Source: Candidatus Dojkabacteria bacterium
Lineage (GTDB): Bacteria > Patescibacteriota > Dojkabacteria > J137
Length of the DNA: 64,000 bases
Assembly: GCA_030950485.1 (NCBI GenBank)
Contig: JAUZRK010000021.1
Coordinates: 5,498 to 69,497 of the forward strand
Direction of reading: 5' to 3'
Position numbers and translations under genes: made by a program. The number at the start of each line of letters is the position of its first letter. Position 1 is the stretch's first letter. The notes under the pieces were generated by a model. The model did not search any database, had not been told where the DNA came from, and saw only the letters and a program-made list of their open reading frames with translations. This document shows positions 1,583 to 47,014 of the stretch, piece after piece.

Positions 1583-2407
1583 ATGGGGGGGAATTATTTA
1601 GAGAAAACAAAAGGTAAATCTTTAAACAGATTTAAAGTTTGGCTTGAACAAGCAAAGTATGACTTGGAAATTGCGAGAATATCGCATGACTCTGGTTATT
1701 ATGAATGGGCTTGTTATCAATCTATTCAATCAGTAGAAAAATTAGTGAAATCTGTTATTGTTCATTCTGGATATAGACCTCCTAGAATTCATAAGTTAGG
1801 AGTTCTATTAAGTATAGCCAATAGAGCAAATAAAGCTTTTGAAAATGTTAAATTAAACTTCAGAAAAGTAGAGTCATTTACTTTCATCTCAAGGTATCCA
1901 TTTATTATCCCTGGACAAAATAACACGCCTCATGAAATGATCTCTGCTGATGATTCAAAATTATGCATAAGATTAGCAACTGATATCTTTGAAGAAATAC
2001 AAGTTTTCCTAAAAGGGCAAAAAATTAGAACTCCAAATGGTGAATCTATCGAAATGCAAGATTACTATTTTACACAAGACGAAATTGATACAAGATTAAC
2101 GCAGATTGAAAGTTTACCTGAGATATGTGAAAAATTAGATATAAAAAAGATCATACTTTTTGGAAGTTTCTCTAGGGAGCTTATACGACCTAGATCAACA
2201 ACAATGGATATATTAATAGTTGCTGATACTACGCTATCTTTCTTCGATAGAATACATTATGTTAGAGAAAAAACGAGAGGCTTAGAGCCGATTGTTGAAC
2301 CAATAATTTATACTCCTAGTGAGTTTAATAACCTTTTAGTTGAAGAAGGCGAGGGCTACTTAGAGAGTGCGGTAGAGGAGGGAAAAGTATTGTTTGAGAA
2401 GAAATAA
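1583..2407 (+). CDS. Single-chain fusion of an N-terminal HEPN domain and a C-terminal minimal nucleotidyltransferase (MNT-like) domain
   Basis: The N-terminus has a HEPN-like helical region with an R-x4-H motif (YRPPRIHKL). The C-terminus has a pol-beta-type NTase signature (ILFGSFSRELIRPRSTTMDILIV, a GS...R plus acidic motif that is partly degenerate). Confidence 0.55.
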   Translation: MGGNYLEKTKGKSLNRFKVWLEQAKYDLEIARISHDSGYYEWACYQSIQSVEKLVKSVIVHSGYRPPRIHKLGVLLSIANRANKAFENVKLNFRKVESFTFISRYPFIIPGQNNTPHEMISADDSKLCIRLATDIFEEIQVFLKGQKIRTPNGESIEMQDYYFTQDEIDTRLTQIESLPEICEKLDIKKIILFGSFSRELIRPRSTTMDILIVADTTLSFFDRIHYVREKTRGLEPIVEPIIYTPSEFNNLLVEEGEGYLESAVEEGKVLFEKK

Positions 2408-13659: not shown

Positions 13660-14229
13660 TTAAGAAACAAACTTATTTCTCTTTATAAAAAACCTCAAGA
13701 TATGTTCTTTTCCTTTTGAGATACCTATTCTTTCAGATTCCATTACCTCGTACTCTGAATCATTTTCTACTATGAATAGTGTTGAATCTTTGTTTGTTAA
13801 GTCTAGTCCATAAAATGACTTGTCGATATCCATTGCTTTACATAATTTTCCAGGGCCAGTAGTTAAATCTTTTAACTTTTCTTTACTTCTAAATTTCTGC
13901 ATTAAATCTATAACTTCGATTGGTTCTAATGCTCTTATTAAGACACTTACTGGATCATTAATCTCGCTGCATGTTATATCTAGTAGATTTTGTCCATGCA
14001 TACTATGAATATAGGCGTAACCCGCTGGTCCGAATAGGACTTTTGTTCTCTCTGTTTTTCCAATGAAAGAATGAGCTGCTGGATCATTTGCGCCTAGATA
14101 TGCTTCAGTTTCAACAATTACGCCAGAAATAATTCTTTCTCCTAACTTTCGAACCAAGAGTTTGCCTAATAAGTCTTTTGCAACTAAGGTCGCATCTCGA
14201 TTGAAGAATGTATTTTCTAGTATGATCAT
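13660..14229 (-). CDS. mpg: DNA-3-methyladenine glycosylase (Mpg/AAG family)
   Basis: GVIVETEAYLGANDPAAHSF...LFGPAGYAYIH matches the Mpg signature. Confidence 0.85.
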   Translation of the reverse strand: MIILENTFFNRDATLVAKDLLGKLLVRKLGERIISGVIVETEAYLGANDPAAHSFIGKTERTKVLFGPAGYAYIHSMHGQNLLDITCSEINDPVSVLIRALEPIEVIDLMQKFRSKEKLKDLTTGPGKLCKAMDIDKSFYGLDLTNKDSTLFIVENDSEYEVMESERIGISKGKEHILRFFIKRNKFVS

Positions 14230-14804
14230 TTATTTAATTTTACAATATAATCCATGATGTCATTCCAATTATATACCCTAGTTACCTTAGGGTGAGAGTA
14301 GTCTTGCCAATATTTACCATTCATTAATAAGAGATGGGGGATAATGTCATAAACATCTTCGAAATTTTGATATCTATCATCAATAAAAACATCACTTCCT
14401 TCAAGAAATGGCCTTTTGCTATTAGTATATCCAACTCCAATTACTTCTATGTTTTCATTTACTTTATAAGTTGCTAGCCATTTAAGTGCTACATCTAATG
14501 ACTCGTCGCTTCTAGCAGTGACTATTTTTACCGTATGATCTCGAGATAGTTTATTAATAGATTTAACTGAATTTAAGATTGGTTTCAATATGTCTGCTGT
14601 TTTTATATCTGCATACATGTCATGGGTAATCTCTCGAAGAATTGTCTTTGGAAGTACTCCAGTTGTCTCTAATTCTTCAAAGCTAACATTAGGAGCATCT
14701 TTAGAAAGTTCTGGGTATCTTTTTTGAAACTCATTTTTAATATAAAAATCTTTCAGTTCTTGCGTATCAGCAATTACTTTATCAAAATCTATTGATATTA
14801 TCAT
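14226..14804 (-). CDS. 5'(3')-deoxyribonucleotidase-like HAD phosphatase (NT5C family)
   Basis: N-terminal DxDxV motif (ISIDFDKV) plus a HAD core. Family-level call. Confidence 0.55.
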   Translation of the reverse strand: MIISIDFDKVIADTQELKDFYIKNEFQKRYPELSKDAPNVSFEELETTGVLPKTILREITHDMYADIKTADILKPILNSVKSINKLSRDHTVKIVTARSDESLDVALKWLATYKVNENIEVIGVGYTNSKRPFLEGSDVFIDDRYQNFEDVYDIIPHLLLMNGKYWQDYSHPKVTRVYNWNDIMDYIVKLNK

Positions 14805-17742: not shown

Positions 17743-19522
17743 TTATTTATAACCTTCAGCCTGTTTAGTAAACATCTCATTATAAAGCCCAGTGGTGTTC
17801 ATCAACTCTTCATGACTACCACTTTCTATAATCTTGCCCTCATCTAATACTATTATCCTATCAGCATTTCTAACTGTAGCGAATCTGTGTGAAACTATTA
17901 TCATAGTTGTATCTTTTGCTAAATGACTTATTTCTTCAAAGACTCTTGCTTCAGCTAGAGCATCTAGTGCAGAAGTTGGTTCATCTAATATTACTAATTT
18001 TGGATTAGCAAATAGCGCTCTTGCAATACCAACTTTTTGCCATTGGCCACCTGAAAGATCAGTTCCATTTTCAAAATCTCTACTAAGTAATGTTTCTATT
18101 CCTTCTGGTAACGTATCAATAAAAGTATTAATTCCTGCTTTTTCTGCACTTTCTTTAATGAATTCTAAATTATTCTCATCTTCTAAGTTTCCAATTGCAA
18201 TATTATCTTTTAAACTAAAATTTTGCAAAAGATTGAAATAGTACTCCCCAAAGTTTGTAATATGAATCTAAATCTAGTTCTTTTATATTTATATTATTTA
18301 TTAAAATCTCTCCCTCGTTTACATCATAAAATCTTGCAAGAAGCTTTATAAGCGTTGTCTTTCCAGCACCATTTTTACCAATTAATGCAATTTTTTCTCC
18401 AGAGTCTATTTTGAAACTTAGATTTTTGAAAATATACCTCTTAGTATTTGGGTATTTAAAGCTAACATTTCTAAACTCAATCTTTGGTGATGACTTTTCT
18501 ACTTTTTGAGGATTTTTAGAAATTATAATTTTTGATTTTAAATCAAAAATTTTTCTTAAGTCGCTTACATAATTCATCTGTTCAATCAGACTAGAAATAC
18601 TTCCTTCTACTTGAGAAAGTCTGTTGGATACGACAAAAATGTTTGCAAGCAAAAAAGTATAAGAACCTATTTTTAACTGACCATCAAGAATTTCTGAGAT
18701 TAAGAACATGTTAAATCCAACAAAGATTAGTGAAGAAATTATTGTTGAAATAAACATGTAAAAGAATTTTCTATTTAATGGTTTATTAGCAGAATTGACA
18801 AAGCTTAGTTGAGCATTTAAAAATACACTAATAATTTTATCTGCAAAACCATATACTCTTGCTTCTTTTATACTATCTAGATCGTCAAATGCTTTCATTG
18901 CTTTATTTGAATGTATTTTCTCATCTCCATCAGTATCCCAAATATTATAGAGTGCCTGTCCGTATTTTTTACTTACAATGAAATCAAATGATATTGGAAT
19001 AAATAATAAAAGTATAAATATAGGATTTATTGTTAGAAGAAGTCCTCCAACAAGTATTAAACCTATTAGTGCAGCCAAGAGCCTAGTAGATTGTCTAGCA
19101 ATTGTTACAGCTCTCCAAAAAATAACTGTACCAGCTTTTTGATGCATAAGATTAAACTCTTTACTCTCATGTGCTTCTATATCTGTAGTTACTATTTTAT
19201 GAATATATTTTGCCCAACCTAGCCTATTCCATTTATAGTTGAATTTTATTTCTGAAAAATAGTCTAATGCAGAAGTAAAATCTTCCAGGATGATTAAAAA
19301 TAATAAGGCCAATAAATATGGACCAAATTCAGGTATTAAATCTTTACTTTGAAAATCTTCTAGTTTTACAAGTTTATTTATTAGTAAACCACTAACAAAA
19401 GTAACAATTACTGGGGCTAATACATTAATAAGTCTTACAATAAGCATTAGTAAGACTTCTGGCTTACAGACCTCCCAAAGTAGCTTAATTATCCATTTGA
19501 AATCTGAAAGTTTTTGTTTCAT
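17743..19522 (-). pseudogene. ABC exporter (fused permease-ATPase, type I exporter), split by a frameshift near 18215..18228
   Basis: The 435-aa piece holds the TMD and Walker A (GKNGAGKTTL). The 161-aa piece holds the ABC signature LSGGQWQ, Walker B ILDEPTSALD and the H-loop. The pieces abut in different frames. Confidence 0.75.
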
Positions 19523-19553: not shown

Positions 19554-21316
19554 TCATTTCTTACTAAACCCACCACTTTGAATATCCCAAAGATTCTTGT
19601 AAATTTTAGAGTCACTAAGAAGCTCTTTATGAGTTCCGCTTTCAGCTACTGAACCATTTTCTATTACAAAAATATTATCGCAATGCGTAATTGTACTTAA
19701 TCTATGCGCAATAATAATCACTGTCTTATTCTGACTTAAAACTGTAAATGCTTCTTGAATTAGTTTCTCACTCTCGCTGTCTAACATACTAGTAGCTTCA
19801 TCAAATATAACTACTTTTGGGTTCTTAATTAAAACTCTAGCAATAGCAATTCTTTGTTTTTGACCTCCAGAAAGTTTTAATCCTCTTTCTCCAACTTTTG
19901 TTTCATAACCATCTTTTAAAGTCATTATGAAATCATGAATTTTTGCTTTCTTACAAGCTTCAATAATAATCTCTTTATTTCCCAGATTATCTAAATCATG
20001 AATGTCATCCAGAGCATATCCAACATTATAGTAAACGCTTCTATTAAATAAGACTGGCTCTTGGGGAACTAATCCAATAATTTCTCTAAGATCTTTATTT
20101 GAAAGATCTTTTATATTAACTCCATCAATCTCAATGCCTCCTTTCCAAACATCATAATATTTCATTAGGAGTCTGGTTAAGGTTGATTTACCACCTCCTG
20201 AAGTACCTACAAAAGCTATTGTTTCTTCTGACTTTATATCTTAATTTAAATCATTAATAACTGAAATATCACTAGTATAACCAAATGAAACATTTTGAAA
20301 ACTGATATTACCTCTAACCTCGCTTATAATTTGAGGATTGTTTATATATTTAATACTAGGCTTTGCATCGTATAGCTCGTAGAAATCTTCAATTGTAGGA
20401 AGGTCTTTCAATACATCTCTAATATTAAAAATCATTCCCATAACTCTTCCCGTCATCTGAGTTAAATAAGTTAAAATTACTACAACCTCACCTAAAGTTA
20501 AGTTTCCTTCTGTATACAATGTATTAGTAACTACTGCTGGGACTATAAAAACAAAAACCCCGGCAAGTCTTGCAACAAAATCAATAAGTCTAAAAGTATC
20601 TTGATATTTAAATTGTGCCTCTTGTGCAATTTCTAACTTTTTATCTAAATATTTAACTTCATAATCTTCTTTACCAAAAGATCTTACTGTTTCAAAATTT
20701 GAGACACCGTCAATTATCGTACTATTTCTATCGTATTCAGCGTCTTTTAATCGTTCCCTTTGCTTGATATTCATCTTAATTGATAACAGAAGAAAAGGTA
20801 CGGTAACTATTATTACTAAGATTGACGTTAAACTAATTAGTGGAGAGATAAAATCATAACTACAACAGGAATCATTAGATTGCCGAAGTTCTCCATTGTA
20901 AACCACTCAAGCCTCCATAAAAACATATCTATAGCCGATCTACTATTCAATATAATAGAAATCATTTTTCCTGTTTGTTTATTTACATGATAGTTATAGT
21001 CTTGCTCAATTACATTTTTATACACGTCATGCATTAAGTCTCTCATTAGTTTTCCCAGATGCCTTGACTTTGGATAGAATGTTAGAGGTTCTAAGATTAA
21101 TGGAGAGGCTATTAATACTCCTATTAAAAGTATCATCTTAAACATATCTAACTCCTCAACTGAATTTGCAGAATCTATAATTTGACCAATAGCTAGCGGA
21201 ACAAGGTTGTATGAAACTAAGAGAATTATTGATGCAATTATTCCGAGTATATGAAGTGATTTATATTTTTTTGATAAACTAATATACCTTTTATAGAGGC
21301 CGAAGAAATTGTTCAT
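19554..21316 (-). pseudogene. Second tandem ABC exporter, interrupted by one frameshift (about 20837..20906) and one in-frame TAA (20241..20243)
   Basis: Three consecutive ORFs cover the TMD N-terminus, the TMD C-terminus, and the NBD. Walker A (AFVGTSGGGKSTL) lies in frame immediately after the TAA. LSGGQKQR and the H-loop follow. TGA marks the natural end. Confidence 0.75.
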
Positions 21317-22364: not shown

Positions 22365-23111
22365 ATGAATCATACTAAAAATAACCTCTCATTCCTCCTT
22401 GGTAGCAATGAAACGGTTGAGGATGTTGTAACAAAAATGAATCTACTAAGTAGATTTTTTCAAAGCTATTCTGATCTTTCGGGCTTTATTCCTTTTCTAG
22501 AAACATATAAATATGTAACAGGAGAGGTATATTTATCTCGTGAAACATTTAATAGCTTTCCTCAAACTGAGAACCTAGATATATTTTTTGCGAATTTGTA
22601 CTTTAAACCAATCTATAGTTTTCTAACTGAGGGTAAAATGCCGTTACCTTGGAGAACTTACTTAGAATATTGTAACAATAATTTTCACAACCCATTTCTA
22701 CAAGTACTAATAGGTATATGCGTTCATATTAATTCCGATCTAGCATAATCTTTAGTTGAAACTGATTTTAATGAAGAAGATGATCTCTTCCATATAGACA
22801 TAATTTTAATGCATATTGTTCCTAAGTTAATGAGTTATCTAGCATTTAAAGAGCACGATATCTTAGCAATTCTAGGTCTAGCTGCTTTACCTATAACAGA
22901 GCATGAAACAAAGTCTATAATTCTAAGATGGAGACATGATGCTTGGCGAAATGCGAAAAAATTAAGATCTGGAGAAATTAATTTAAATGACTTAAGAATA
23001 GAAACTGATAGATTAGTACAAAGAATAATTTGGGAGTGGAAAGAGTATTTAAACCCAATACATGCTTTTAAATTATTACGAGATCTAGAGAGCTTGAGTG
23101 TCGATATTTAA
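22365..23111 (+). pseudogene. Hypothetical protein with an in-frame TAA at 22746..22748; 22365..22748 and 22809..23111 share one frame
   Basis: The two ORFs are in the same frame, and the frame is open across the TAA (INSDLA*SLVETDFNEEDDLFHIDIILMHIV...). Confidence 0.45.
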
Positions 23112-23366
23112 AATATCTTCTTGGAGAAACAGCAGAGAATTCAGTAGAAGAAAAAAAAGAAAGTTCCCGTTAGCGAGAGCTTGTATTATACGTTAAGCAT
23201 CAATCCACTAACTTGACGTCAGCGTTGATGTCGTTTGAAATATTTGTTTTAAATTATTAAAATTCATAGTTAATTAGACCGTATTCTTTCTATTTCTTAT
23301 CCATTCAAATAAAAACTGTCCAGCCCAAGAAGTATACTCACCAGAATAATCACTTAACCAACTACT

Positions 23367-24109
23367 CATTTCTTCATACTTTTAGGTAAATTATATAATT
23401 CAGTTGCTATTTTAATTCCCCAAGTATCAATTGGAGCAATTCGATCAGTAACTCAAGAAAAAGTTAAAATACAATCTGCAGCCTTATTTCCAATTCCTTT
23501 GATTTTTAATAATTCTTCTTTCACCTCATCTTCGGAAAGATATTTATATCTTTCTAATAAGTTACTTTTTGTTAAGTATTCAATAGCAGAAATAATATAT
23601 TTATCTCTATATCCAACTCCAAGAGGCTTAAGATCCTCGCTTGTAGCTAAACTTAGTTCCTCCAAGTTTGGAAATAGACTAAAACTACGATTATCAATTA
23701 CGAGCTTTTTCCCAAATAGACTCTTTAATAGGTTAATAGTCTTTCTAATTGAAGTTATATTTTTATTTTGAGAAATAATGAATGAAATAATAGTTTCAAA
23801 AAGATCTTGTTTTAAGAGTCTAAGTCCTGGATATTTTACTATGGAGTCATTAATATAATCACCTTTATTAATTGATTTAATCATTGATTCATAGTCAAAT
23901 GATAGTCTGAAGTATTCTTCAATGATTCTTATATCATTTAAAACAGGGTAACTTTGCCAGTGAAGAGTATTTTCTTCCAAACTAATCTTCAAGATAGAAT
24001 TTTGATGAGAACCATAGTAAAAGTTGCCTATTAATTCCCAATTAAAACTTTGTCCACCTACTAAAGTAGTATCCAAATTTATAGCTTCCTTTAACTTAAG
24101 TGTATTCAT
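23367..24109 (-). pseudogene. ogg: 8-oxoguanine DNA glycosylase/lyase (OGG, HhH-GPD) with an in-frame TGA at 23453..23455
   Basis: OGG N-terminal motif GGQSFNW. HhH-GPD region with the catalytic Lys (IKGIGNKAADCILTFS), then TGA, then VTDRIAPIDTWGIKIA (the expected Asp-containing segment) in the same frame. Confidence 0.65.
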
Positions 24110-26078: not shown

Positions 26079-26492
26079 TTAGCTAGCACTTAGTATCGTA
26101 TATGTTTTGCTAAGTCCATTTGGAGTAGTTACATCAACATTTTCTCCTTTAATGGCTTTACTAAGAGCTCTCCCCAAAGGGGATAGCCTCGATACATGTC
26201 CAGATTTTGGATCTACTAATTCTTCGTTAACTATTTTAACTTCTCTTACTCTTTCCCCGTTTGAAATAGTAACTGTTCTTAATATACTAGAGTCATTACT
26301 TACTCTTTCTTTTAATTGAACAATGCTGTTATCTAAGGCTTCGATTTCATTTCGGAGTCTGTTTTGAACTAATTGGGCTTCTTCTCCTGATTCGTTGTTG
26401 ACCATTCTTAATCTGACCTCAATCTTTTCCTTCATTGTAATTAATCTCTCTAATCTTGTCTCGAATATATTCTTAGATACATTATTGTCCAT
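26079..26492 (-). CDS. greA: Transcription elongation factor GreA family
   Basis: N-terminal coiled coil and a C-terminal FKBP-like domain (VSRLSPLGRALSKAIKGENVDVTTPNGLSKTYTI). Confidence 0.7.
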   Translation of the reverse strand: MDNNVSKNIFETRLERLITMKEKIEVRLRMVNNESGEEAQLVQNRLRNEIEALDNSIVQLKERVSNDSSILRTVTISNGERVREVKIVNEELVDPKSGHVSRLSPLGRALSKAIKGENVDVTTPNGLSKTYTILSAS

Positions 26493-26841: not shown

Positions 26842-27615
26842 ATGTTTAAATCTTTCACTGAAAGCGAGAATAGATTTAGAAACCTGAGGATTTTTAATCT
26901 GGTTATGGGTTTCTTTCATCTTGCACAAGCTGTAATTATGCTTATGATTAGTAACGATTATACGCAGACTCTAACTACTAGTTTTATAAAAGGAGTTCAG
27001 ACTGGAGAGAGAGAATTTGTTTTCAGTACAAAGCCTGAAAATTTTATTGATATAAATTTGGGAGCTGCAGTCGCAGTATTCTTGTTTTTATCAGCAGCAG
27101 CACATTTTCTTCTAGCTTCTCCAATGTTTTATAACTGGTATGTTAATAACTTAAAGAAAGGAGTTAATTACGGAAGATGGATTGAATATTCACTAAGTTC
27201 TTCATGGATGATTATAATTATTGCAATTCTAACTGGAATGTTAGATGCGCCAAGTCTATTATTGATGGCTTCTTTAAATGCGATGATGATTCTTTTTGGG
27301 TATGTGATGGAGCTTCACAATCAGACTACTGAGAAGACTGATTGGACTTCGTTTGTATTTGGTTGTATTGCTGGAGCTATACCTTGGGTAATAATCGCAT
27401 GGTATTTTATCTCTGCAGTTACTAACTTTGAAGGAGAAAATCCAATTCCAAAATTTGTTTATGGAATATTAATATCATTATTTGTCTTCTTCAATATTTT
27501 TGCAATCAACATGTACTTGCAATACAAAAAAGTTGGTCCATGGAAAAACTATCTTTTTGGAGAGACTGTTTTTATTATTAAGAGCCATAAATATGTAAAA
27601 GGTCATTTATGCTAG
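26842..27615 (+). CDS. Heliorhodopsin homolog, C-terminally truncated (TM7 and the Schiff-base lysine region missing)
   Basis: Strong similarity to the heliorhodopsin family along TM1 to TM6 (GFFHLAQAV, RWIEYSLSSSWMIIIIA, FGCIAGAIPW, YGILISLFVFFNIFAINMYLQYKK, WKNYLFGE). The ORF ends about 12 aa after GETVFI with non-helical sequence, and the next gene starts 9 nt later. Confidence 0.75.
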   Translation: MFKSFTESENRFRNLRIFNLVMGFFHLAQAVIMLMISNDYTQTLTTSFIKGVQTGEREFVFSTKPENFIDINLGAAVAVFLFLSAAAHFLLASPMFYNWYVNNLKKGVNYGRWIEYSLSSSWMIIIIAILTGMLDAPSLLLMASLNAMMILFGYVMELHNQTTEKTDWTSFVFGCIAGAIPWVIIAWYFISAVTNFEGENPIPKFVYGILISLFVFFNIFAINMYLQYKKVGPWKNYLFGETVFIIKSHKYVKGHLC

Positions 27616-27624
27616 AATTTAGAT

Positions 27625-28146
27625 ATGAAAGTATTAGTAATCTATTCAATAAACGGAGTTGAGGAAAATAAGGAGAATTTTTCTTTCCTTAAAAAATACG
27701 TAAGTGATTACGATGGAGTAGAGCTCGTTGCGCATAAAAACAAAGAAATACTTTCTGGTAAAGCTCATTTCAAAGGTACAAAGAAGGTGATTCAGCAAGC
27801 GGATGCAATAATTATTGATAATTCCCATTCAAGTTTTAGATTAGGATACGAGGCTTCGATTGCTTTAAATATGCATAAGCCGGTTTTAATTCTGTCTAAA
27901 GAAAAAGATTATTCTGAATTCATCCAGCACCCGAGTTTATTTGGAGCGAAATATAATGATACAAAAGGAATAAAAGATAATGTCGATAAATTTTTAAATA
28001 ATGTACATAAGAAAATGCTTTCGATTAGGTTTAATATGTATATTTCAAAAGAGCAGGAAGAAGCAATTGCCAAAAAGGCCTCAACTGAAGGTCTTACAAA
28101 ATCTGAAATTATAAGAATATTGATTGATGAGCATTTAGTTGAGTAA
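27625..28146 (+). CDS. Nucleoside 2-deoxyribosyltransferase-like (Rcl/DNPH1-like) Rossmann domain fused to a C-terminal ribbon-helix-helix domain
   Basis: NDT-like motif ADAIIIDNSHSSFRLGYEASIALNMHKPVLIL. C-terminal RHH-like SIRFNMYISKEQEEAIAKKASTEGLTKSEIIRILIDEHL. Confidence 0.45.
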   Translation: MKVLVIYSINGVEENKENFSFLKKYVSDYDGVELVAHKNKEILSGKAHFKGTKKVIQQADAIIIDNSHSSFRLGYEASIALNMHKPVLILSKEKDYSEFIQHPSLFGAKYNDTKGIKDNVDKFLNNVHKKMLSIRFNMYISKEQEEAIAKKASTEGLTKSEIIRILIDEHLVE

Positions 28147-28215
28147 CAACTCTTTGGTGTCTCACCCATCGCCCTTCGGGCACTTACCTCAAGGGAAAAT
28201 TATAAGGGTGTTAGC

Positions 28216-28854
28216 TTAAACACTCTTGAATGCCTTAACTGTGTCTTTAACTCTTTCTAAATCTTTCCAGTGGATGTGGAGAGAGTCAATAAAGTGAATA
28301 TACTTTCCAGGTTTAACACCTACCTTTTTTGCTACATAGTATTGTAATGACACGAATTCAGAAATATTCATAAATATTTTTTTATACGCATCTGAAGAGT
28401 GAGCATGAGTATGCCATTCTAGCGTATCATCTTTGATTCTTGCCCAAAGTATTTGGGTACATGGGCTAATTTTAGAATCTTGATCTATATTCTTATCCCA
28501 AATTGAAATTTGTGATTCACCAGTAGGTAGCTTTTCTTTTAACTTTTTGATCATGAATTCGATTTGACTATTTGGCTGGTCAAAAATTCGATGATGGTAA
28601 ATTTTTGTCCACTCGTGAACTACTAGCTCTTCATTTTCTCCTGAGTAAATGTAATTGTTAATTATCTCTAAATCTTTTTTACCCATTGGAAATAGATTGT
28701 CGTATTCTATATGACTTGAATTCTCGAGTGTAATAAGTGCTGGCGAGTCTCTAAAGTATTTTTTGTTATCTGCATTTTGATTAGAATCGAGTAGAGTAGC
28801 TAATGTTTTTCTCCAAACTTTCGAAATTGAATTATCTTCGTTAATAGTTATCAT
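28216..28854 (-). CDS. Thymidylate synthase-fold protein (divergent ThyA/dNMP hydroxymethylase family)
   Basis: ISPCTQILWARIKDDTLEWHTHAHSSDAYKK...FIDSLHIHWKD aligns with ThyA APCHAFFQFYV...CQLYQRSCD...GGDTHLYSNH. The catalytic Cys context is conserved. Confidence 0.5.
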   Translation of the reverse strand: MITINEDNSISKVWRKTLATLLDSNQNADNKKYFRDSPALITLENSSHIEYDNLFPMGKKDLEIINNYIYSGENEELVVHEWTKIYHHRIFDQPNSQIEFMIKKLKEKLPTGESQISIWDKNIDQDSKISPCTQILWARIKDDTLEWHTHAHSSDAYKKIFMNISEFVSLQYYVAKKVGVKPGKYIHFIDSLHIHWKDLERVKDTVKAFKSV

Positions 28855-28927
28855 AGCGAGATGATACTAGCTTGATTTTCTTTACTCAAGGGGAATATTG
28901 CGTGTGTAAGTATGTATATGGATCTAT

Positions 28928-30294
28928 CTAAAACCAGTAGTCTCTCTTATTCTGAACATTATGCGTAGCAATCACTTTTTTTCTAACGCACTGCATTATT
29001 CTCGACTCAGTATTGCCCGAGCCTGAAGCTTTCCAACCGGTCCAATGATCCCATCCTGGGAATTCATTTAATGGATCATTTATAAACACCATTCCAGTTT
29101 CGACTTTAGAAGCTATATCTTTAGCAAGCTCTATATTTTTTGTATAAATCGAAGTTGATAACCCATATTTTGTATCATTATTTAATGCAATTGCTTCTTC
29201 AATAGTTTTAAATTTTATAACAGGGATTACATTTCCAAATGTTTCGGTTTGAACTAAATCAAAACTAGTATTAGGTAGCGCAACAATACTAGGGGTTAGG
29301 AAGAATCCTGTTTTGTTTTCATTCCACCGTGAATTAATCGTGCTCCTTTTAGCTCTGAATCAATGATTTTATTTCGGACAATTCCTCGGCTTATTTTATT
29401 TATATATGGACCGTATTGTATATTTGTCTTTAATTGAGACACTTTATTTACTAGTGTTTCTATAAATTCATCATAAATTTTCTCATAAATAAAGACTCTT
29501 TTAGTACCAACGCAGTCTTGTCCTGAATGATAAGTGGCTCCCCAAGTGATTACGCTAGCAGTAAATTCAATATTTGAATCATTTAAAACAATTGCAGCAC
29601 TATTTCCACCCATCTCAGCTTCAATTGGTGTACTTCCAGAATTTCTTTTTATATCTAACCCAGCCTCAACAGATCCGACAAAGAATATCTTATCTATTTC
29701 AGATTTAACCAGTTCTTTACTAATAGATTCATCGCCTAAAACTATCTGTATTAAATCTTTATCGAAACCTGCTTTTACAAATACTTCTTTTAGTTCAATC
29801 GCAAGAGCAGGGGAGTATTCAGAAGGTTTAAGTATTACTGAATTTCCTGAAATTAAATTTACAACAATTAGAGCCATTGGTACGAACCATGGGAAATTCC
29901 AGGCTGTAATTAATGCATTTACTCCATACGGCTCATATTTAAATTTAGCTTCAGTATTCTCGTCTATCTCAAATCCTTCATCTAAGCTTTCTAATTTTTT
30001 AACTTGTTTAATATAGTAATCAATATCGCTAATACTTGTTTCTACTTCAACTTCAAAGTCCATAGGTATTTTTCCTGTTTCTTTCTGAGCTATCTTAATC
30101 AATTTTTCTTTAACTTTCTCTATCTCACTCTGTAAATTCTTGAATAATATTATCTTGTCTTCTAATTTAGTAACCTTCCATTTAGTTTGTGCGTTCTTAG
30201 GTTCCAGTATTTGCTGGGCTAATTCTTGAGTCGAAGTTGCTTCGTATTCTTTATAAAGTTCTTCTGTAACTGGGTTTATTGTTTTGAATTTCAT
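28928..30294 (-). pseudogene. Aldehyde dehydrogenase family, frameshifted near 29296..29340 (A-homopolymer context)
   Basis: The N-terminal ORF has the catalytic-Cys motif GQDCVGTKRVF and ends just after the GG motif (ARLIHGG). The C-terminal ~118 aa (GFFLTPSIV...ETFGNVIPVIKF...YGLSTSIYT...GMVFINDP) lie in another frame at 28928..29300. Confidence 0.75.
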
Positions 30295-30335
30295 AACTAA
30301 ATTATAATCTTAAAAGTAATGCTACTGCAAAATTA

Positions 30336-30845
30336 TTATGCTTCACTTTGGATGTTACTCCAGAACATATCTGATGCTCTTTGATCATTCAATTCTATCT
30401 CAACTATCCCAGCATTATCTTCTTCATTATCCACAAACCTTGGAGTAGTTAGTTCTACGAATTTTAAACTATCTCCTGGGTTTACAGTCCACTTAAATGA
30501 CCAGTCTTTTCCATACATTGCAAATTGGTTTTTAGATTCTGGAAAAGACGAATCATATGTACCTTTTAAAATAGTTCCATCAGGTGCCTCTGCAACGAAA
30601 GTTGCTTTACCTTCTACCATTATGTCGCAGAAGACTATATCCTTTGTAAAATGCTGAACTGGAGAACCATCAGCTTTTAGTGTGATAATTGCTAGATCTA
30701 GCGTACTATCTCCTTGTATTGTATACATTTCTAGATAGATATGATCTTTTCCTTCGTATGGAAAGCCGCTCCAGCCTTGTATTAGCTCTTGAGGCTCACC
30801 ACCAGAGTAAAGATATGTTTTTTCATTTTCCTCGTATACGCGCAT
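30336..30845 (-). CDS. Hypothetical protein
   Basis: ORF only. Confidence 0.35.
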   Translation of the reverse strand: MRVYEENEKTYLYSGGEPQELIQGWSGFPYEGKDHIYLEMYTIQGDSTLDLAIITLKADGSPVQHFTKDIVFCDIMVEGKATFVAEAPDGTILKGTYDSSFPESKNQFAMYGKDWSFKWTVNPGDSLKFVELTTPRFVDNEEDNAGIVEIELNDQRASDMFWSNIQSEA

Positions 30846-30957
30846 TTGCTCATCCGTGCTTGAAGCTGGGAGAGTTGTACTAATTATTTCTACTATAAGT
30901 TCTCTACATAATCACATTAATGTTACGACTTTATATTAAAAATCTGGTATACTAAAC

Positions 30958-31776
30958 TTGATGTCCGGAGAAGCAGACAACCTAAAAACGCAGCTATCAC
31001 AATTCGACCTGTCAGAAGGAGAGGTTAAGGTATATTTACACCTTCAAACAAGTGGTAAATCTACGCCTTTAGAAATGAGCAAGAAACTAAAACTTTCTAG
31101 AACTAAGGTATATAGAGTTATTGAGAAGCTTTTAAATAAAGGATTGATTATTGAAAAGATAGAAGGACATGGAAAAAAATATATAGCACAAAGGCCTTCC
31201 AGGTTTTTGGAGATCCTTAGTGAAAAAGAAAGGGAACTCTCATTGCTTCAAATGTCAGCACCCTCAATTGTTAATCAGCTAAACTCCTTAGCGCCTCAGA
31301 TTGACTCTAAAACTCAGATATTACACTATAGAGGCGTTGAAGGATTAAAACAGGTTGTATGGAATACTACGAAGGTCGACGGGACTTTTAGAATTTATGA
31401 GGTTGGAAATTCAATGGATGTGTTTTTATCTCAAGAATTTGCAGAAAGAGTTAGATTAGAGTTATCGAAAAATCAGAAAAATAAATTCAGACAACTTACA
31501 AATCTTAAAGAGATTAGAAACTTTACTAACGTTACCGAACATGTAAAACAATGGGAGGGGAGACATATTCCTCAAAATAAGTTGGAGATCAAAGTAGAAA
31601 TTCAAATCTATAATGACTGTTACGCTATGTATGAATATACTAAGGATGAAGTCTTTATAGTAGAAATTTATAATAAAGAATTGGCAGATATGCAAAAACA
31701 AGTCTATGATTTAATCTGGGAAAGTGCAATGCCAATGAAAGTTATAGAAGCTGGCGGTAGAGCTATTTTAGAATAG
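30958..31776 (+). CDS. TrmB-family transcriptional regulator
   Basis: N-terminal TrmB-type wHTH (FDLSEGEVKVYLHLQTSGKSTPLEMSKKLKLSRTKVYRVIEKLLNKGLI). Confidence 0.6.
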   Translation: MMSGEADNLKTQLSQFDLSEGEVKVYLHLQTSGKSTPLEMSKKLKLSRTKVYRVIEKLLNKGLIIEKIEGHGKKYIAQRPSRFLEILSEKERELSLLQMSAPSIVNQLNSLAPQIDSKTQILHYRGVEGLKQVVWNTTKVDGTFRIYEVGNSMDVFLSQEFAERVRLELSKNQKNKFRQLTNLKEIRNFTNVTEHVKQWEGRHIPQNKLEIKVEIQIYNDCYAMYEYTKDEVFIVEIYNKELADMQKQVYDLIWESAMPMKVIEAGGRAILE

Positions 31777-36187: not shown

Positions 36188-36259
36188 GGTGTGGTAGCCA
36201 AGCGGTAAGGCAATTTCTCGGAAGAGAATAGATCGTAGGTTCAAATCCTACCCACACCT
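36188..36259 (+). tRNA. tRNA-shaped gene with a Gln-type D-arm and a non-canonical anticodon arm (isotype undetermined; possibly non-decoding or damaged)
   Basis: Perfect 7-bp acceptor stem (GGTGTGG/CCACACC), T-arm GTAGG-TTCAAAT-CCTAC, D-arm GCCAAGCGGTAAGGC. The anticodon region ATTTCTCGGAAGAGAAT folds best as a 5-bp stem (TTCTC/GAGAA) with a GGAA tetraloop. A T5 run follows. Confidence 0.5.
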
Positions 36260-38670: not shown

Positions 38671-39436
38671 AGAGTACGTTTATAGGGAATCAAATAAGGG
38701 TTTTGATGATTATTTCCCTAGATCAGAAAATATGAAGGTAATAGATAGATAGGGAATTATAAATTTAGCTATAGCTCATGACTTTTACCAATAGATAAAA
38801 TTGAAGATTTCACAGAAAGATGCTCTGCATTACAAGCTGTAATAATACAGTTGCTGAATGATGAAAGCTGGACGGAAAAATGCTATAATATAATTAGATC
38901 TTTAACAAAGAATAAGCTTTCACCCAAAGATAAATACAAAGATTTATATTCTTCTTGTACTTATTTCCGGGGGGATGCTTATTCGACATTAAATCCTTTT
39001 ATTTTAAGGCAAGCCAGAGTTTTGTAGTTAATTACTCTGTAAAAAGAAACACTACACTTGACTTAAGCGTCAAACAAGAAAATTTCGTAGCTAAGGCAGT
39101 TACTGCAGTAAAGAATTTCTTTACTCCTAACTACAACCTAAACTATGCTTTCGTAGCATAATTTAGATAGTCTTAACTATGCTGGTGGAAAAACAAAAAG
39201 TACCCAGCTGTTTAATTTATTTTTCTCCGAATGAAAATTTATTAAACGTCTACTCAGTTCGGATACAGAATTACTCTTTAGTTTATGGAGTAATTTCATG
39301 CTTAATATAAACTCGGAGTTTTATGTTTTTGTTAAGTTTCTATATAACTCTTCGTAAAAAATAAACTTAAATAAGCTTGTACACTTTGAGATTTTAGATT
39401 TAATGGACACGGGAAATCCGTCATCTCCACCAAAAG

Positions 39437-39467
39437 AGCCTGAGTACCACACTCGGGCTTTTTTTTA
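39437..39467 (+). terminator. Intrinsic terminator (hairpin plus U8) upstream of yidC
   Basis: AGCCTGAGT-accac-ACTCGGGCT-tttttttt. Confidence 0.5.
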
Positions 39468-39521
39468 TAATCACTTGTTTTCTTTAAGTATGGTAAAATA
39501 ATTCGTTTTATTAGACACATT

Positions 39522-41332: not shown

Positions 41333-44300
41333 ATGACTCTGGCAACTGAAAAGTTGAATAGGCAAAGAGGTATTAAGTTTTACTTAAGCGCCATATTCAT
41401 ATTGGCGTTCCTCTTTACGTTATTACTATTATTCTCTGGTGAAGGATCTTCGTCAGGTTCAAATTTTGGTAATTCAAATTCAAAGAATGATTTAGCGGTT
41501 ACTGATTTCGGTGACTTTGTTTTGACGAGCTCGCAGTTGAGTGATGGAAGCATTTCAAGGGCTAAAATTTTAAACGGATCTGTAACACTAGATAAACTGG
41601 CAAAAGATACGATTATACAATATCCCGATGGGAAGACTGGCCCTGTAAATGTTAGTAATAAATCAATTTTAGAATGGCATCTTGCAGATGGCTCGGTAAG
41701 TACAGCCAAAATCTTAGATTCTGCAATTACTACAGCTAAACTTGCAGATGGCTCAATAACTGAAATTAAAATAATAGATGGTGCAATATCTTCAGGAAAA
41801 ATTAGAGATGGAAGTATTCTTGCAATTGATCTTTCAAATGGAAGCATTATTACTGCAAAAATTGCAGATGGTGCTATTACTGAGTCGAAAATAGCTAGTA
41901 ATTCAATTAGCACAGATAAACTTCAAAATGGATCAGTAACACTAGATAAATTAGCCCCAGGTGTACTAGATGGTATAACTATAAATAATGATTCATTAAA
42001 TGGAGATGTTTTAATTGATAATTCCGTTAACGGTTCAAAAATAGAAGATAACTCAATTACTGGCGATAAAATTGAAAATAATTCAGTTACGGGGGATGAC
42101 ATTCAGGATAATTCAATTACGGGAGATGATATTCAAGACAACTCAGTTACAAATCTTGATCTTGCAGATGGTTCTGTCACAGGTGTTAAATTGGCAGACA
42201 ACTCAATAAATGGGGCTAAGTTAACTAACTTATCTATAACTGCTGCAAAGATAGCACTAGGAACAATAGCAGGAGCTCAAGTAGCAAGTGATGGAAGTGT
42301 AGTTAAATCTATAATAGGAGGAGGAGGTATACAAGTTACTAATAATAATAATGGTAGCTATTCTCTAAAGCTCATAACTACTTGTTCTGATGGACAGGTA
42401 TTATCATGGAATAGTGCTGGTACGGATTGGGTCTGTACAACACCTCCAGGAGGAGCTGGTCTTTCAGACACAGATGATTTAGCAGAAGGTACGTTAAATC
42501 TATACTATACAACTACAAGATTCAATACAGACTTTAACTCTAAAGATACTGATGAATTAACAGAAGGAACAACAAACCTTTATTATACAGAAGCAAGATT
42601 TGATTCCTCACTTGGTGGAAAAACACTAGACGACATAACAGAAGGGACAACAAATAAATTTTATACAGAAACAGCATTTGATAATTCATTTAGTAATAAA
42701 GATAGTGATGATCTTACAGAAGGAGCTTCAAATCTTTTCTGGACACAAAGTAGATTTGATATAGCTTTTGGACTAAAAGACACAGACGACCTAGCAGAAG
42801 GAGCAACAAACCTATACTATACAGAAACAAGATTTGATAACTCATTCGCAGGAAAGTCATTAGACGATTTAGCGGAAGGAGTTACAAATAAATTCTATAC
42901 AGAAACAGCATTCGATAATTCGTTGAGCGGTAAGACAACAACAGATGTAGCAGAGGGAACAAACTTATACTATACAGAAGAAAGAGCACAAGACGGAGTA
43001 GGAACAGCATTAACAGATACAACAGAAATAAACTTTACATATAACGATGCAGGAAATGCAATTACAGCAGATTTAATAGATGGATCAATAGCAGAATCTA
43101 GATTAGATGTATTAAATGCACCAACAGACACATATTCATTAACATGGAATCAAGGATCAGGAAAAATGGAATGGGTAAATGTAAGTGGAGGAGGAGCAAC
43201 AACATTTAATAGTTTATCAGATACAAACTTAACAGCAGTAGCACAAGGAGACGTACTATATTATGATGGAACAGACTGGGTAAATTTAGCAGCAGGAACA
43301 AGTGGACAATTCTTACAAACCGCTGGAGTGGGTGCAAATCCAACTTGGGCTAATATTAGTGGATCTCTTGCTAGCGGAACTCTTTCAGGAAATACTTTAG
43401 AATGGAATGGAGTTGCCTGGGTAGAAAGCTCAGCATTAACAAATGACGGAACAGATGTAGCTACGAGTGGACAATTTAGTTCAAATGGAAATACAATAAT
43501 CGGAAGTGACGCAGCAGATACATTATTAATAAACGCAATACTACAAGGATCAAATCCATTAGTATTTGAAGGAGCAACAACAAATGCATTTACAACAACA
43601 TTAGCAATAACAGATCCAACAGCAAATAATACAATAACATTACCAGATAGTTCAGGAACACTAGTTCTAACTTCTGATTTAACAGGATTAGCAGCAACAA
43701 CTGATTTCGATACAGAAACAGAACTAGAAGGATTACTAACAGATGTAACAAACATATATACAAATAACGACGGAAACCTAAATGATGACGATCTATCAGA
43801 TAACGATACTGGAGATTTAGCAGAAGGAACAAATCTATACTTTACAAACGAAAGAGTAGATGACCAGGTAGCATTATTAGTACAAAATGGAACAGGAATT
43901 TCATGGGCATATGATGATGGAGCAAATACATTTACACCAACAATAAGTTTAAGTGCATTCGATACAGATAATTTAGCTGAAGGAGCTACAAACTTCTATT
44001 GGAGCGATACAAGATTTGATAACGCTCTTGCATTAAAGGACACAGACGATCTAGCAGAAGGGTTAACAAATCTATACTATACAGAGACAAGATTCGACAA
44101 TTCATTCGCAGGAAAATCATTAGACGATTTAGCGGAAGGAGTTACAAATAAATTCTACACAGAAACAGCATTCGATAATTCATTATCAGGAAAAACACTA
44201 GACGATATAACTGAAGGAATAACAAACCTATACTTTACAAACGAAAGAGTAGACGACCAAGTAGCCTTGTTAATAAAAGATGGACTAGGAATAAATTGGA

Positions 44301-47014
44301 CATACGATGATAGATTAGGCACATTAACAGGAGTAGTAGATTTTACAGACTTCGATACAGATAACTTAGCAGGAAAGATACTAGACGATATAACTGAAGG
44401 AATAACTAATAAATTCTATACAGAAACAGCATTTGATAATAGCTTGTCAGGTAAAACAACAACAGATGTAGCAGAAGGAACAAATCTATACTTTACAGAC
44501 GAAAGAGCACAAGACGGAGTAGGAACAGCATTAACAGATACAACAGAAATAAACTTTACATATAACGATGCAGGAAATGCAATTACCGCTGATTTAATAG
44601 ATGGGACAATAGCAGAAACTAGGTTAGCCGTTCTAAACGGACCTGCTGATGGACAAATTTTAAGTTGGAACCAAGGATCAGCGCAGATGGAATGGATCAA
44701 TAATAGTGGAGGAAGTTCTACATTTAGTGCTTTATCAGATACAAACCTAACAGCAGTAGCACAAGGAGACGTACTGTATTATGACGGAACAGATTGGGTA
44801 AACTTAGCAGCAGGAACAAGCGGACAATTCTTACAAACACAGGGAACAGGTGCTAATCCAATTTGGGCTACAAGTCCAGGTGCTCTTGCAAATGGTACAC
44901 TAGCTAATAATACTTTAAGATGGAACGGTTCAGCTTGGGTTGAAAGCTCAGCTTTAACTAATAATGGTACTGATATAACAGTAAGTGGGCAACTTAATGC
45001 TAATGGAAATACTATAATTGGTGATGCAAATACAGATACTGTAACATTTAATTCAATTCTACAAGGAGCAATCCCACTAGTATTTGAAGGATCTACAAGT
45101 AATACATTCGAAACAAGTTTATCAGTAACAGATCCAACAGCAGATAGAACAATAACATTACCAGATGCTGATGGTACTGTAGCGTTAACATCAGATTTAA
45201 CTGGTTTAGCTGCTACAACTGATTTTGATACTGAGGCAGAGTTAGAAGGATTATTAACAGATGTAACAAATGTATATACTAACAATGATGGAAATTTAAA
45301 TGACGATGACCTTTCAAATAATAGTACAAGTGATCTAGCAGAAGGAACAAATCTATACTTTACAGATGAAAGAGTTGATGACAGGGTTTCAGTTGTAGTA
45401 CAAAACGGAACTGGAATTTCATGGTCATACAATGATGGGGCAAATACATTTACACCAACAATATCACTAGCTGCATTCAGTACAGATAATTTAGCTGAAG
45501 GAGCTACAAATTTATATTACACTGGCGCAAGATTTAATTCTGACTTAGCTACAAAGACAACAACAGATCTAACAGAAGGAACAAACCAATACTTTACAGA
45601 TGAAAGAGTAGACGATAGAGTAGCTACACTTGTACAAAATGGAACAGGAATTACATGGTCATACAATGATGGAGCAAATATATTTACACCAACAATTACT
45701 CTAGGAACAAGCATTGATAGTTCAGAAATCGTCGATGGTACTATTGTAAATGCAGATGTAAACGCAGCTGCTGGAATAGTAGAAAGTAAATTAGCACTAA
45801 ATTTCCCAACACATACTAATGCAAATGATCCAACAGCTGCTCAGAAAGCAAAGCTTGTTGAATTAGTTGATGCAGCAGATACTAATATAGCAATAGGTAA
45901 TAAGAATATTTCTAATATACATACACAAAACACAGATACAGGAACTACAGCTACTAGCTTTCAAATAAATTCAGGAGCAAGCGGTCCTAGATTGAAAAAT
46001 AGTACAGGTACACTTCAAGTAAGAAATGCAGCAGATAGCGGATTCGCTAATTTACAAGCTGCAGATATTCAAGGAGGAAACTTAAATCTAACCGGAAATG
46101 TAGATTTTGATGGAGTATTATTAGCAGGTTCTACTGGCGTTCAATTAACAAACGCAGTTGGTAAAATCCAGGCTATTTCATCAACATATTTTGCAGACTT
46201 ATCAGGAGCTAACTTAACAGGACTTAATGCAACTCAGCTATTATCAGGTACAGTCCCATCCGCAAGATTAAGTGGAAGCTATACAGGAATTACAGGACTT
46301 GGAACAGTAACTACAGGAGTTTGGAACGGTACTAGAGTAGATATTTCAGATTATACAAATTTAGCAGCAGGAACAAATCTAACACTTGTAAACGATACTT
46401 TAAATGTTAATGATGCATTCTTAACAAATACAGGAAATGATTCTACAACAGGGATACTAACAGCAGCAGGATTCGTATCAACACCTACAGGATCAGCACC
46501 AATCTCTCCAACAGCGGGACAAGTTTATTACAATTCGTTAGATAGTAATATGTATGTTTACGATGGGACTCAGTGGGTAGATCTAACAGTACAGTCTGCT
46601 GGAGGTGGAGGAGCAGCTTCAATGGTTCACTATGCTGAGGCAGATGCTCAGCAAACAAATGCTACACTAACAATGACACCTGCTCTTAGTACGACATTTA
46701 CGCCAACAACAACAGGTAATTACCTTATCGAGTATACATATGAAATTAGTAATTCAAGTTCATCTAAATTAAGTCTTTCTAATGTAGATTATTGTACTGG
46801 TACTGTAGCATGTCCTGGAGGAGGAACTATAATAGCAAATCATACACAGTCAGCTTTTGGCTCTGTTAGTTACTCTATGGTCTCAGGTTTCAAGCGAGTT
46901 TCTTTAACTGGTGCTCAGCCATACAATGTAGATGTAAGTCACAGAACAGAGGTGACAGCTGGAGGAGCTACTTCATACATTCAAAATGTAAGAGTAATTG
47001 TTTGGAAGCTATAG
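41333..47014 (+). CDS. Giant (1893 aa) membrane-anchored fibrous surface protein built of short tandem repeats, with phage-tail-fibre-like character
   Basis: N-terminal TM segment. About 25 copies of an ~11-aa repeat (e.g. DGSITEIKIIDGAISSGKIRDGSILAIDLSNGSIITAKIADG). More than 20 copies of a ~19-aa repeat (TDDLAEGxTNLYYTExRFDxSxxGK). Gly/Thr/Asn-rich beta-rich segments. Internal ~1.5-kb tandem duplication. Confidence 0.7.
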   Translation: MTLATEKLNRQRGIKFYLSAIFILAFLFTLLLLFSGEGSSSGSNFGNSNSKNDLAVTDFGDFVLTSSQLSDGSISRAKILNGSVTLDKLAKDTIIQYPDGKTGPVNVSNKSILEWHLADGSVSTAKILDSAITTAKLADGSITEIKIIDGAISSGKIRDGSILAIDLSNGSIITAKIADGAITESKIASNSISTDKLQNGSVTLDKLAPGVLDGITINNDSLNGDVLIDNSVNGSKIEDNSITGDKIENNSVTGDDIQDNSITGDDIQDNSVTNLDLADGSVTGVKLADNSINGAKLTNLSITAAKIALGTIAGAQVASDGSVVKSIIGGGGIQVTNNNNGSYSLKLITTCSDGQVLSWNSAGTDWVCTTPPGGAGLSDTDDLAEGTLNLYYTTTRFNTDFNSKDTDELTEGTTNLYYTEARFDSSLGGKTLDDITEGTTNKFYTETAFDNSFSNKDSDDLTEGASNLFWTQSRFDIAFGLKDTDDLAEGATNLYYTETRFDNSFAGKSLDDLAEGVTNKFYTETAFDNSLSGKTTTDVAEGTNLYYTEERAQDGVGTALTDTTEINFTYNDAGNAITADLIDGSIAESRLDVLNAPTDTYSLTWNQGSGKMEWVNVSGGGATTFNSLSDTNLTAVAQGDVLYYDGTDWVNLAAGTSGQFLQTAGVGANPTWANISGSLASGTLSGNTLEWNGVAWVESSALTNDGTDVATSGQFSSNGNTIIGSDAADTLLINAILQGSNPLVFEGATTNAFTTTLAITDPTANNTITLPDSSGTLVLTSDLTGLAATTDFDTETELEGLLTDVTNIYTNNDGNLNDDDLSDNDTGDLAEGTNLYFTNERVDDQVALLVQNGTGISWAYDDGANTFTPTISLSAFDTDNLAEGATNFYWSDTRFDNALALKDTDDLAEGLTNLYYTETRFDNSFAGKSLDDLAEGVTNKFYTETAFDNSLSGKTLDDITEGITNLYFTNERVDDQVALLIKDGLGINWTYDDRLGTLTGVVDFTDFDTDNLAGKILDDITEGITNKFYTETAFDNSLSGKTTTDVAEGTNLYFTDERAQDGVGTALTDTTEINFTYNDAGNAITADLIDGTIAETRLAVLNGPADGQILSWNQGSAQMEWINNSGGSSTFSALSDTNLTAVAQGDVLYYDGTDWVNLAAGTSGQFLQTQGTGANPIWATSPGALANGTLANNTLRWNGSAWVESSALTNNGTDITVSGQLNANGNTIIGDANTDTVTFNSILQGAIPLVFEGSTSNTFETSLSVTDPTADRTITLPDADGTVALTSDLTGLAATTDFDTEAELEGLLTDVTNVYTNNDGNLNDDDLSNNSTSDLAEGTNLYFTDERVDDRVSVVVQNGTGISWSYNDGANTFTPTISLAAFSTDNLAEGATNLYYTGARFNSDLATKTTTDLTEGTNQYFTDERVDDRVATLVQNGTGITWSYNDGANIFTPTITLGTSIDSSEIVDGTIVNADVNAAAGIVESKLALNFPTHTNANDPTAAQKAKLVELVDAADTNIAIGNKNISNIHTQNTDTGTTATSFQINSGASGPRLKNSTGTLQVRNAADSGFANLQAADIQGGNLNLTGNVDFDGVLLAGSTGVQLTNAVGKIQAISSTYFADLSGANLTGLNATQLLSGTVPSARLSGSYTGITGLGTVTTGVWNGTRVDISDYTNLAAGTNLTLVNDTLNVNDAFLTNTGNDSTTGILTAAGFVSTPTGSAPISPTAGQVYYNSLDSNMYVYDGTQWVDLTVQSAGGGGAASMVHYAEADAQQTNATLTMTPALSTTFTPTTTGNYLIEYTYEISNSSSSKLSLSNVDYCTGTVACPGGGTIIANHTQSAFGSVSYSMVSGFKRVSLTGAQPYNVDVSHRTEVTAGGATSYIQNVRVIVWKL

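Follow-up and report, generated by a model that had tools for sequence, protein, structure and literature searches.

A heliorhodopsin gene without the lysine-bearing part of its seventh helix in Candidatus Dojkabacteria, probably a recent 3'-truncated pseudogene

The stretch of a Candidatus Dojkabacteria contig analysed here (64,000 nucleotides, hereafter the window) has 32% GC and resembles a core chromosome of the candidate phyla radiation (CPR), with genes for RpoD, RNase Y, ParAB, IleRS, Fmt, YidC, L25 and FtsA and with a tmRNA. It holds an open reading frame (ORF) for a heliorhodopsin (HeR), the subject of this analysis, at 26842..27615 on the forward strand; the ORF encodes 257 amino acids and ends in a TAG stop at 27613-27615. 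A preliminary description of the locus had placed the gene at 26842-27624. The start agrees with the ORF, and the end does not, as 27624 takes in the 9-nt spacer (27616..27624, +) that separates the HeR stop from the start codon of the following ORF. That ORF begins at 27625, in the same frame as HeR ((27625-26842) mod 3 = 0), as had been described.

The ORF product is a heliorhodopsin homolog, with a family assignment far above chance. The Pfam Heliorhodopsin profile (PF18761) was matched with an E-value of 2.1e-84 and 283.1 bits against a cut-off of 26.7, and the NCBIfam model 'heliorhodopsin HeR' (NF038020) with 288.9 bits against a cut-off of 100; profile positions 1-226 of 242 and 1-228 of 244 were covered, respectively. 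Among solved structures, the PDB matches were TaHeR (6is6; E = 1.7e-63, 47% identity) and 48C12 (6su3; E = 8.6e-52, 39-41% identity). Protein relatives were taken as the top 120 clusters out of a search of 5.8 billion proteins. The closest are HeRs of Dojkabacteria and other Patescibacteria, and Dojkabacteria and the CPR were already known to carry HeRs (PMC9166423). The stretches quoted in the preliminary description (RWIEYSLSSS, FGCIAGAIPW, YGILISLFVFFNIFAINMYLQYKK, WKNYLFGE and the tail IKSHKYVKGHLC) were all found in the ORF, and the likeness to the family that it called almost residue-for-residue is overstated, the nearest relative being 76% identical and the HeRs of solved structure 39-47%. 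The identical protein is held twice in NCBI, as MDQ6985931.1 and MDQ7020372.1, both 'heliorhodopsin HeR [Candidatus Dojkabacteria bacterium]' in metagenome-assembled genome (MAG) records, and the record of the truncated HeR has neither a partial nor a pseudo flag.

The HeR-homologous part of the protein, residues 1-246 (26842..27579, +), comprises transmembrane helices (TM) 1 to 6, the beta-hairpin of the AB loop and the first ~10 residues of TM7 (NYLFGETVFII). The alignments showed that it keeps the counterparts of His23 (H26), His80 (H88), Arg104 (R112), the counterion Glu107 (E115) and Glu230 (E241) of 48C12, residues whose roles in that protein have been described (PMC9726877).

Beyond this point the homology ended. 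In the Pfam, NCBIfam and PDB alignments, in tblastn against 82 genomes and in MAFFT, the end fell at residue 246-248, after GETVFII(KS), and all local alignments ended at query residue 248, opposite Ser237 of 48C12. The Schiff base of 48C12 is formed by Lys241 (PMC9726877), four residues past Ser237, and SxxxK in TM7 is the retinal-binding motif of HeRs, those of the CPR included (PMC9166423). Neither Lys241 nor Trp246, which lies further on, has a counterpart in the window HeR. Aligned with 16 relatives, the window protein read KSHKYVKGHLC and then stopped, where the consensus continues from GExVYII with LSLVAKSxLAWQVFSGTLR. This tail (11 codons and the TAG, 27580..27615, +), set apart by the alignments, a DNA null comparison, hydropathy and model confidence, is polar and non-homologous over 9-11 codons, and it replaces the ~19-24 codons (LSLxAKSxLAWQVxSGTLR…) that are present in every relative. 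S248 (27583-27585) may be the homolog of Ser237, and the breakpoint would therefore lie between 27579 and 27586. With S248 opposite Ser237 in the alignments with 48C12 and TaHeR, there was no lysine at S+4, where V252 stands; K253 is at S+5, and only four residues follow it.

Hydropathy gave six hydrophobic segments, as the preliminary description had expected in place of seven, with a Kyte-Doolittle maximum of 0.28 in the last 30 amino acids vs 1.42 in TM7 of the nearest relative (P0002). The AlphaFold2 model (predicted local distance difference test, pLDDT, 78; predicted TM-score, pTM, 0.71) had helices at residues 11-36, 73-105, 110-130, 136-163, 169-194 and 205-228, an AB-loop beta-hairpin with strands at 41-54 and 58-72, and a short helical stub at 237-256; pLDDT dropped under 50 at residues 250-257. 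In a Foldseek search with this model, itself a prediction driven by the multiple sequence alignment, the top matches were TaHeR (TM-score 0.85) and 48C12, with TM-scores of 0.80-0.85 and E-values of 1e-13 to 1e-17. The window HeR is thus like 48C12 and TaHeR in sequence and predicted fold through TM1-TM6, the AB-loop hairpin and the start of TM7, but it has six membrane segments, and the final two thirds of TM7 are missing, along with Lys241, Trp246 and the extracellular end of the protein. Most of TM7 is gone, including the Schiff-base lysine and the Trp246 equivalent, and the view that this is a heliorhodopsin homolog without the TM7 lysine region was confirmed by the Pfam, NCBIfam and PDB alignments.

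A frameshifted continuation restoring TM7, the outcome that the preliminary description had set against its own view, was not found. The three frames 3' of the break contained no TM7-like sequence, and when 40 AT-rich HeR tails were built into an nhmmer profile, positions 27560-27700 gave no match, even with --max and at E ≤ 1000. The best local DNA alignment between the 45-nt tail and the 10 closest tails scored 17, compared to a mean of 17.1 in a null of random 45-mers from the window, of which 52-58% scored at least 17; genuine tails scored 27-58 against each other. A MAFFT alignment with the five closest 3' ends had offered a frameshift rescue, through a 14-nt gap and weak similarity, which by nhmmer and the null was at chance level. 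TM7 coded elsewhere in the window was likewise rejected, as TM7 peptides (tblastn) and motif regular expressions gave only noise in all six frames of the 64 kb. Derivation of the tail from the region upstream of the one relative of the next gene (locus L084) was unconvincing, at a score of 20 with four gaps.

Two further candidates concerned the stop and the lysine. Recoding as the source of the HeR stop and of the broken genes around it, whether by a code-25 reading of TGA as glycine or by a sense reading of TAG, was rejected. Each of the two codons terminates conserved genes where expected (TAG in TrmB and YceG, TGA in a phosphoribosyltransferase-like, PRT, gene, each as long as its homologs), and the breaks in the window are mostly frame changes. 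TAG and TGA are ordinary stops and the genetic code is the standard one, so recoding is no explanation for the HeR stop. K253 was considered as a Schiff-base lysine in a degenerate but homologous first half of TM7, with the TAG derived from TGG (Trp), or with read-through of the TAG into a fusion of HeR with the downstream protein. A MAFFT alignment of 120 sequences did place K253 in the lysine column by a 1-residue gap, and GTA AAA GGT CAT TTA TGC TAG can be overlaid on GCx AAA AGT xxx CTT GCx TGG. In addition, the ORF that follows HeR keeps its frame at a distance of 9 nt, and with six TM helices and the N-terminus inside, a fused domain would be cytoplasmic. Against this, the spacing from S to K is 5, compared to 4 in 83 of 83 HeR loci and in the 119 of 119 other top matches that fit a motif requiring 4; K, H, K and Y stand in between, where hydrophobic residues are found in the relatives. 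The HMM (hidden Markov model) alignments end at 248 and the similarity of the tail DNA is at chance. With 3 of 11 tail residues being lysine, a near-coincidence is expected in AT-rich DNA. Past the TAG the sequence (NLDMKVLVIY…) is unlike QVFSGTLR, the TAG is a normal stop here, the downstream protein has only one relative, whose gene stands alone, and the prior for being in frame is 1 in 3. K253 as the retinal-binding lysine was rejected on the S+5 register, the polar context, the ends of the HMM alignments and the DNA null.

No second example of the truncated architecture was obtained. Among the 120 best protein clusters, the window protein alone failed to match the regular expression GE..[YFW][IVLMA]…S…K; the other 119 fitted it. 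All 83 HeR loci that were fetched (Patescibacteria, Chloroflexota, Thermoplasmatota and others) had a full TM7 with S-x3-K, and TM7 is intact in P0002, which is 76% identical. The truncated HeR is a singleton and does not represent a lysine-less family.

The gene order around HeR was compared with that of three relatives (loci L001, L002 and L006). The order OGG-RR-GreA-HeR … TrmB-YceG-RuvX-PRT (RR, response regulator) is common to the window and L002, in which the HeR (P0004) is 70% identical, and L006 shares the part HeR … TrmB-YceG-RuvX-PRT. The left anchor shared with L002 is a GreA-like gene (26079..26492, -; Pfam GreA_GreB), and the right anchor is a TrmB-family regulator (30958..31776, +), 70% identical to its L002 homolog and of the same length, with its end at a TAG. 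YceG, RuvX and the PRT gene come after it, an order also present in L002 and L006. The stretch from HeR to TrmB has its own content in each genome. By blastp, the genes of this segment in the window (27616..30957) have no counterpart at this position in the three relatives, and after HeR the L002 interval holds a 263-aa ORF and others. Synteny with L002 and L006 puts the HeR break at the left border of this variable stretch.

The lineage-specific segment opens with a 173-aa gene (27625..28146, +), which has a weak C-terminal ribbon-helix-helix (RHH) match and is named CopG family regulator in NCBI. It had been labelled NDT-RHH; the NDT part has no Pfam or NCBIfam support, and the RHH part was met by a sub-threshold RHH_1 match only (E = 0.001, 19.4 vs 20.5 bits). 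Its sole relative in the 5.8 billion proteins (P0122, 46% identical) lies in an unrelated context, L084, without a HeR. The gene is followed by a short archaeal-type thymidylate-synthase-like gene (28216..28854, -), which matches TIGR03283 over its full length but far under the cut-off, by an aldehyde dehydrogenase (ALDH) gene with a frameshift (about 28928..30294, -; Pfam and NCBIfam), and by a 169-aa ORF (30336..30845, -). GC content and skew across 27.6-30.9 kb were no different from the flanks and gave no signal of foreign DNA. In the window, a terminator scan gave no site in the spacer that follows the HeR stop. Just 3' of HeR in L001 and L002, inspection by eye, with no scan, showed an inverted repeat rich in GC and, after it, a T-rich run. 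No match to a decayed homolog of the 117-aa ORF of L002 was found in the RR-GreA gap of the window.

Directly 3' of HeR in L001 (4524..5639) and L006 (8920..9852) is a gene for a secreted or anchored protein with ~30-aa Cys repeats of the pattern …NQ[TAS]GCD.[IL][FWY]G..NT.Y… and no Pfam match. This Cys-rich protein may be the ancestral neighbour of HeR that was replaced in the window.

At least five other genes at 17.7-30.3 kb are disrupted: OGG, two ABC exporters, DUF5995 and ALDH. The gene for 8-oxoguanine DNA glycosylase (OGG; 23295..24109, -) carries two lesions: an in-frame TGA at 23453-23455, where the intact homolog in L002 has a glycine, and a shift of frame near 23375-23390, past which the C-terminal part runs in another frame to about 23295. 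Two adjacent ABC exporter genes with a transmembrane domain and ABC_tran (17743..19522 and 19554..21316, both -) are broken by frameshifts, the pieces being 2 ORFs in one gene and 3 in the other, and one of these breaks fits an extra base in a AAAATTTT run (GCAAAATTTTAG near 18215-18228). The DUF5995 gene (22365..23111, +) consists of two same-frame ORFs separated by an in-frame TAA at 22746-22748. In ALDH the frameshift lies near 29296-29330, between GGMKTKQ… and …GFFLTPS…, and the C-terminal third (…EEAIALNNDTKYGLSTSIY…) is in another frame. Genes further away, including MPG, NT5C, IleRS and Fmt, are full length. Two of the lesions, the TGA in OGG and the TAA in DUF5995, are substitutions that create stops, which would favour real decay over sequencing error of the indel type. 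The HeR truncation and the lesions around it point to ongoing gene loss in this Dojkabacteria lineage and, speculatively, to the loss of a module related to light or oxidative stress.

Several further features of the window were recorded. A tRNA at 36188..36259 (+; Rfam, 56 bits) received no assignment from ARAGORN, which reported a 4-base anticodon 'cgga' at position 32; its anticodon loop is either unusual or damaged. The tmRNA (38971..39432, +; RF00023, 50.2 bits) fills part of a 1.1-kb gap without ORFs at 38383-39522. Genes of a nucleotide-salvage type are the thymidylate-synthase-like gene mentioned above, an NT5C-like 5'-nucleotidase and a weak nucleoside 2-deoxyribosyltransferase-like protein, the coordinates of the two further genes being 14226..14804 (-) and 61010..61591 (-). 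Two giant ORFs, probably both for surface proteins, were found at 41333..47014 (+; 1893 aa, no Pfam match) and 56180..60934 (+; 1584 aa, with beta-helix and CarboxypepD_reg domains), and between them, at 53901-56180, are mutually overlapping ORFs with no Pfam matches. The ORF at 1583..2407 (+; 274 aa) is a fusion of HEPN and nucleotidyltransferase domains, a toxin-antitoxin-like module in one polypeptide.

The window HeR is, in our judgement, probably a recent 3'-truncated and non-photoactive remnant of a HeR gene, a young pseudogene amid other gene losses. The preliminary description had leaned towards a 3'-truncated pseudogene within local decay, and the lost lysine region, the uniqueness of the truncation and the disruption of at least five neighbours support that lean. 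As we infer from the comparison with relatives, a deletion or replacement at the left border of the variable HeR-TrmB segment would have removed about 60-70 nt, coding for the C-terminal two thirds of TM7 (LSLxAKSxLAWQVxSGTLR) with the SxxxK lysine and the Trp246 equivalent. The frame would now enter unrelated AT-rich DNA, the 5' flank of the newly adjacent gene, for 9-11 codons before it meets the TAG. The product, if made, would have six TM helices and end in a short stub of polar, basic character. Covalent binding of retinal without the lysine is expected to be impossible; with no retinal Schiff base and with a retinal pocket that is not closed, the product would be no photoreceptor. Carotenoid and retinal genes had been reported missing from the window, which holds at the Pfam level among its ~70 ORFs and is uninformative, since the window is 64 kb of the genome. 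The event would be evolutionarily recent, because the rest of the gene is still pristine.

Several observations weigh against this interpretation, and the state of the remaining sequence is the first of them. Residues 1-246 contain no stop and no frameshift. The window HeR violates 3 of the 72 columns whose conservation among 119 relatives is 90% or more, compared to a mean of 1.7 in the others, 25% of which have at least 3. Tajima relative-rate tests against the intact sister P0002, with five outgroups, gave no acceleration (p = 0.13-1.0). The sequence therefore carries no positive signature of relaxed selection, and a functional stub would look alike. The lack of excess substitutions in residues 1-246 would mean either that the truncation is young compared with the 24% divergence between this HeR and P0002, or that the stub is still constrained. 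In addition, the NCBI annotation is that of an ordinary HeR in two MAG records, the junction has the assembly as its sole source, and the relatives from which a deletion or replacement is deduced are only about 70% identical.

An artefact of the MAG, such as a local mis-join or a collapsed deletion over a gene that is in reality intact, is unlikely but is the strongest of the alternatives. The source is a MAG, and several neighbours have 1-nt indels beside short homopolymers, which are possible sequence errors. Look-ups of exact proteins (HeR, RHH and GreA) yielded no independent contig, a 33-nt exact pattern had 0 matches in JGI metagenomes, and the GTDB representatives do not include the source genome. 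The lesion in HeR is, however, no simple indel; about 60-70 nt of TM7 coding sequence are missing and are restored in no frame. The contig is collinear with its relatives on either side of the junction, no repeat longer than 14 nt is present there to cause a mis-join within the window, and the substitutions in OGG (TGA) and DUF5995 (TAA) are atypical of indel-type error. The identical protein also stands under two accessions, which may or may not be independent.

It is somewhat more doubtful still that the truncated HeR is a functional, retinal-free 6-TM protein, for example a light-independent partner or regulator acting through the cytoplasmic surfaces that intact HeRs use for enzymes. Residues 1-246 are intact and H26, H88, R112, E115 and E241 are all kept, with conservation equal to that of intact homologs and no acceleration of rate; an intact-looking upstream part is equally expected from a recent lesion. 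Precedents exist among type-1 rhodopsins (PMC10308929), in that Rh-noK, the freshwater flotillin-associated rhodopsins (FArhodopsins) and the haloarchaeal retinal-free opsins are, like the window HeR, rhodopsin-family proteins without the retinal-binding lysine. Those families keep seven helices with the lysine substituted (PMC10308929), whereas in the window HeR the helix itself is deleted, with most of helix 7 gone. They are also conserved across many genomes, often beside a functional rhodopsin or a flotillin (PMC10308929); the window HeR is a singleton, and no second rhodopsin and no flotillin were found among the about 70 ORFs of the window. Neither the architecture nor the tail recurred in the top 120 clusters or the 83 loci, the tail resembles the upstream region of the next gene and not an evolved C-terminus, and disrupted genes lie all around. 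That the 6-TM stub is kept as a working light-independent protein, either alone or, through occasional read-through of the TAG, fused to the RHH protein, we regard as improbable; if true, it would be the first HeR scaffold re-used without retinal and without helix 7.

The K253 and read-through alternative set out above is barely credible, given the spacing of 5, the polar residues before the lysine and the ordinary role of TAG as a stop in this genome.

Surveys of HeRs treat lysine-less matches as spurious or as pseudogenes (10.1101/2021.02.16.431466), and the window HeR is of the same class as the lysine-less or truncated hits that they exclude, as well as being among disrupted genes; it differs from the excluded pseudogenes in that its upstream 96% is so far without decay. 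Were the stub functional, the HeR scaffold would have a retinal-independent role, for which nothing here argues. The truncated HeR passes the curated HMM cut-offs and is deposited as 'heliorhodopsin HeR', which calls for caution in surveys. Counts of HeRs by HMM score alone, without a check for SxxxK and seven helices, would call this genome light-sensing, and that would very probably be wrong.

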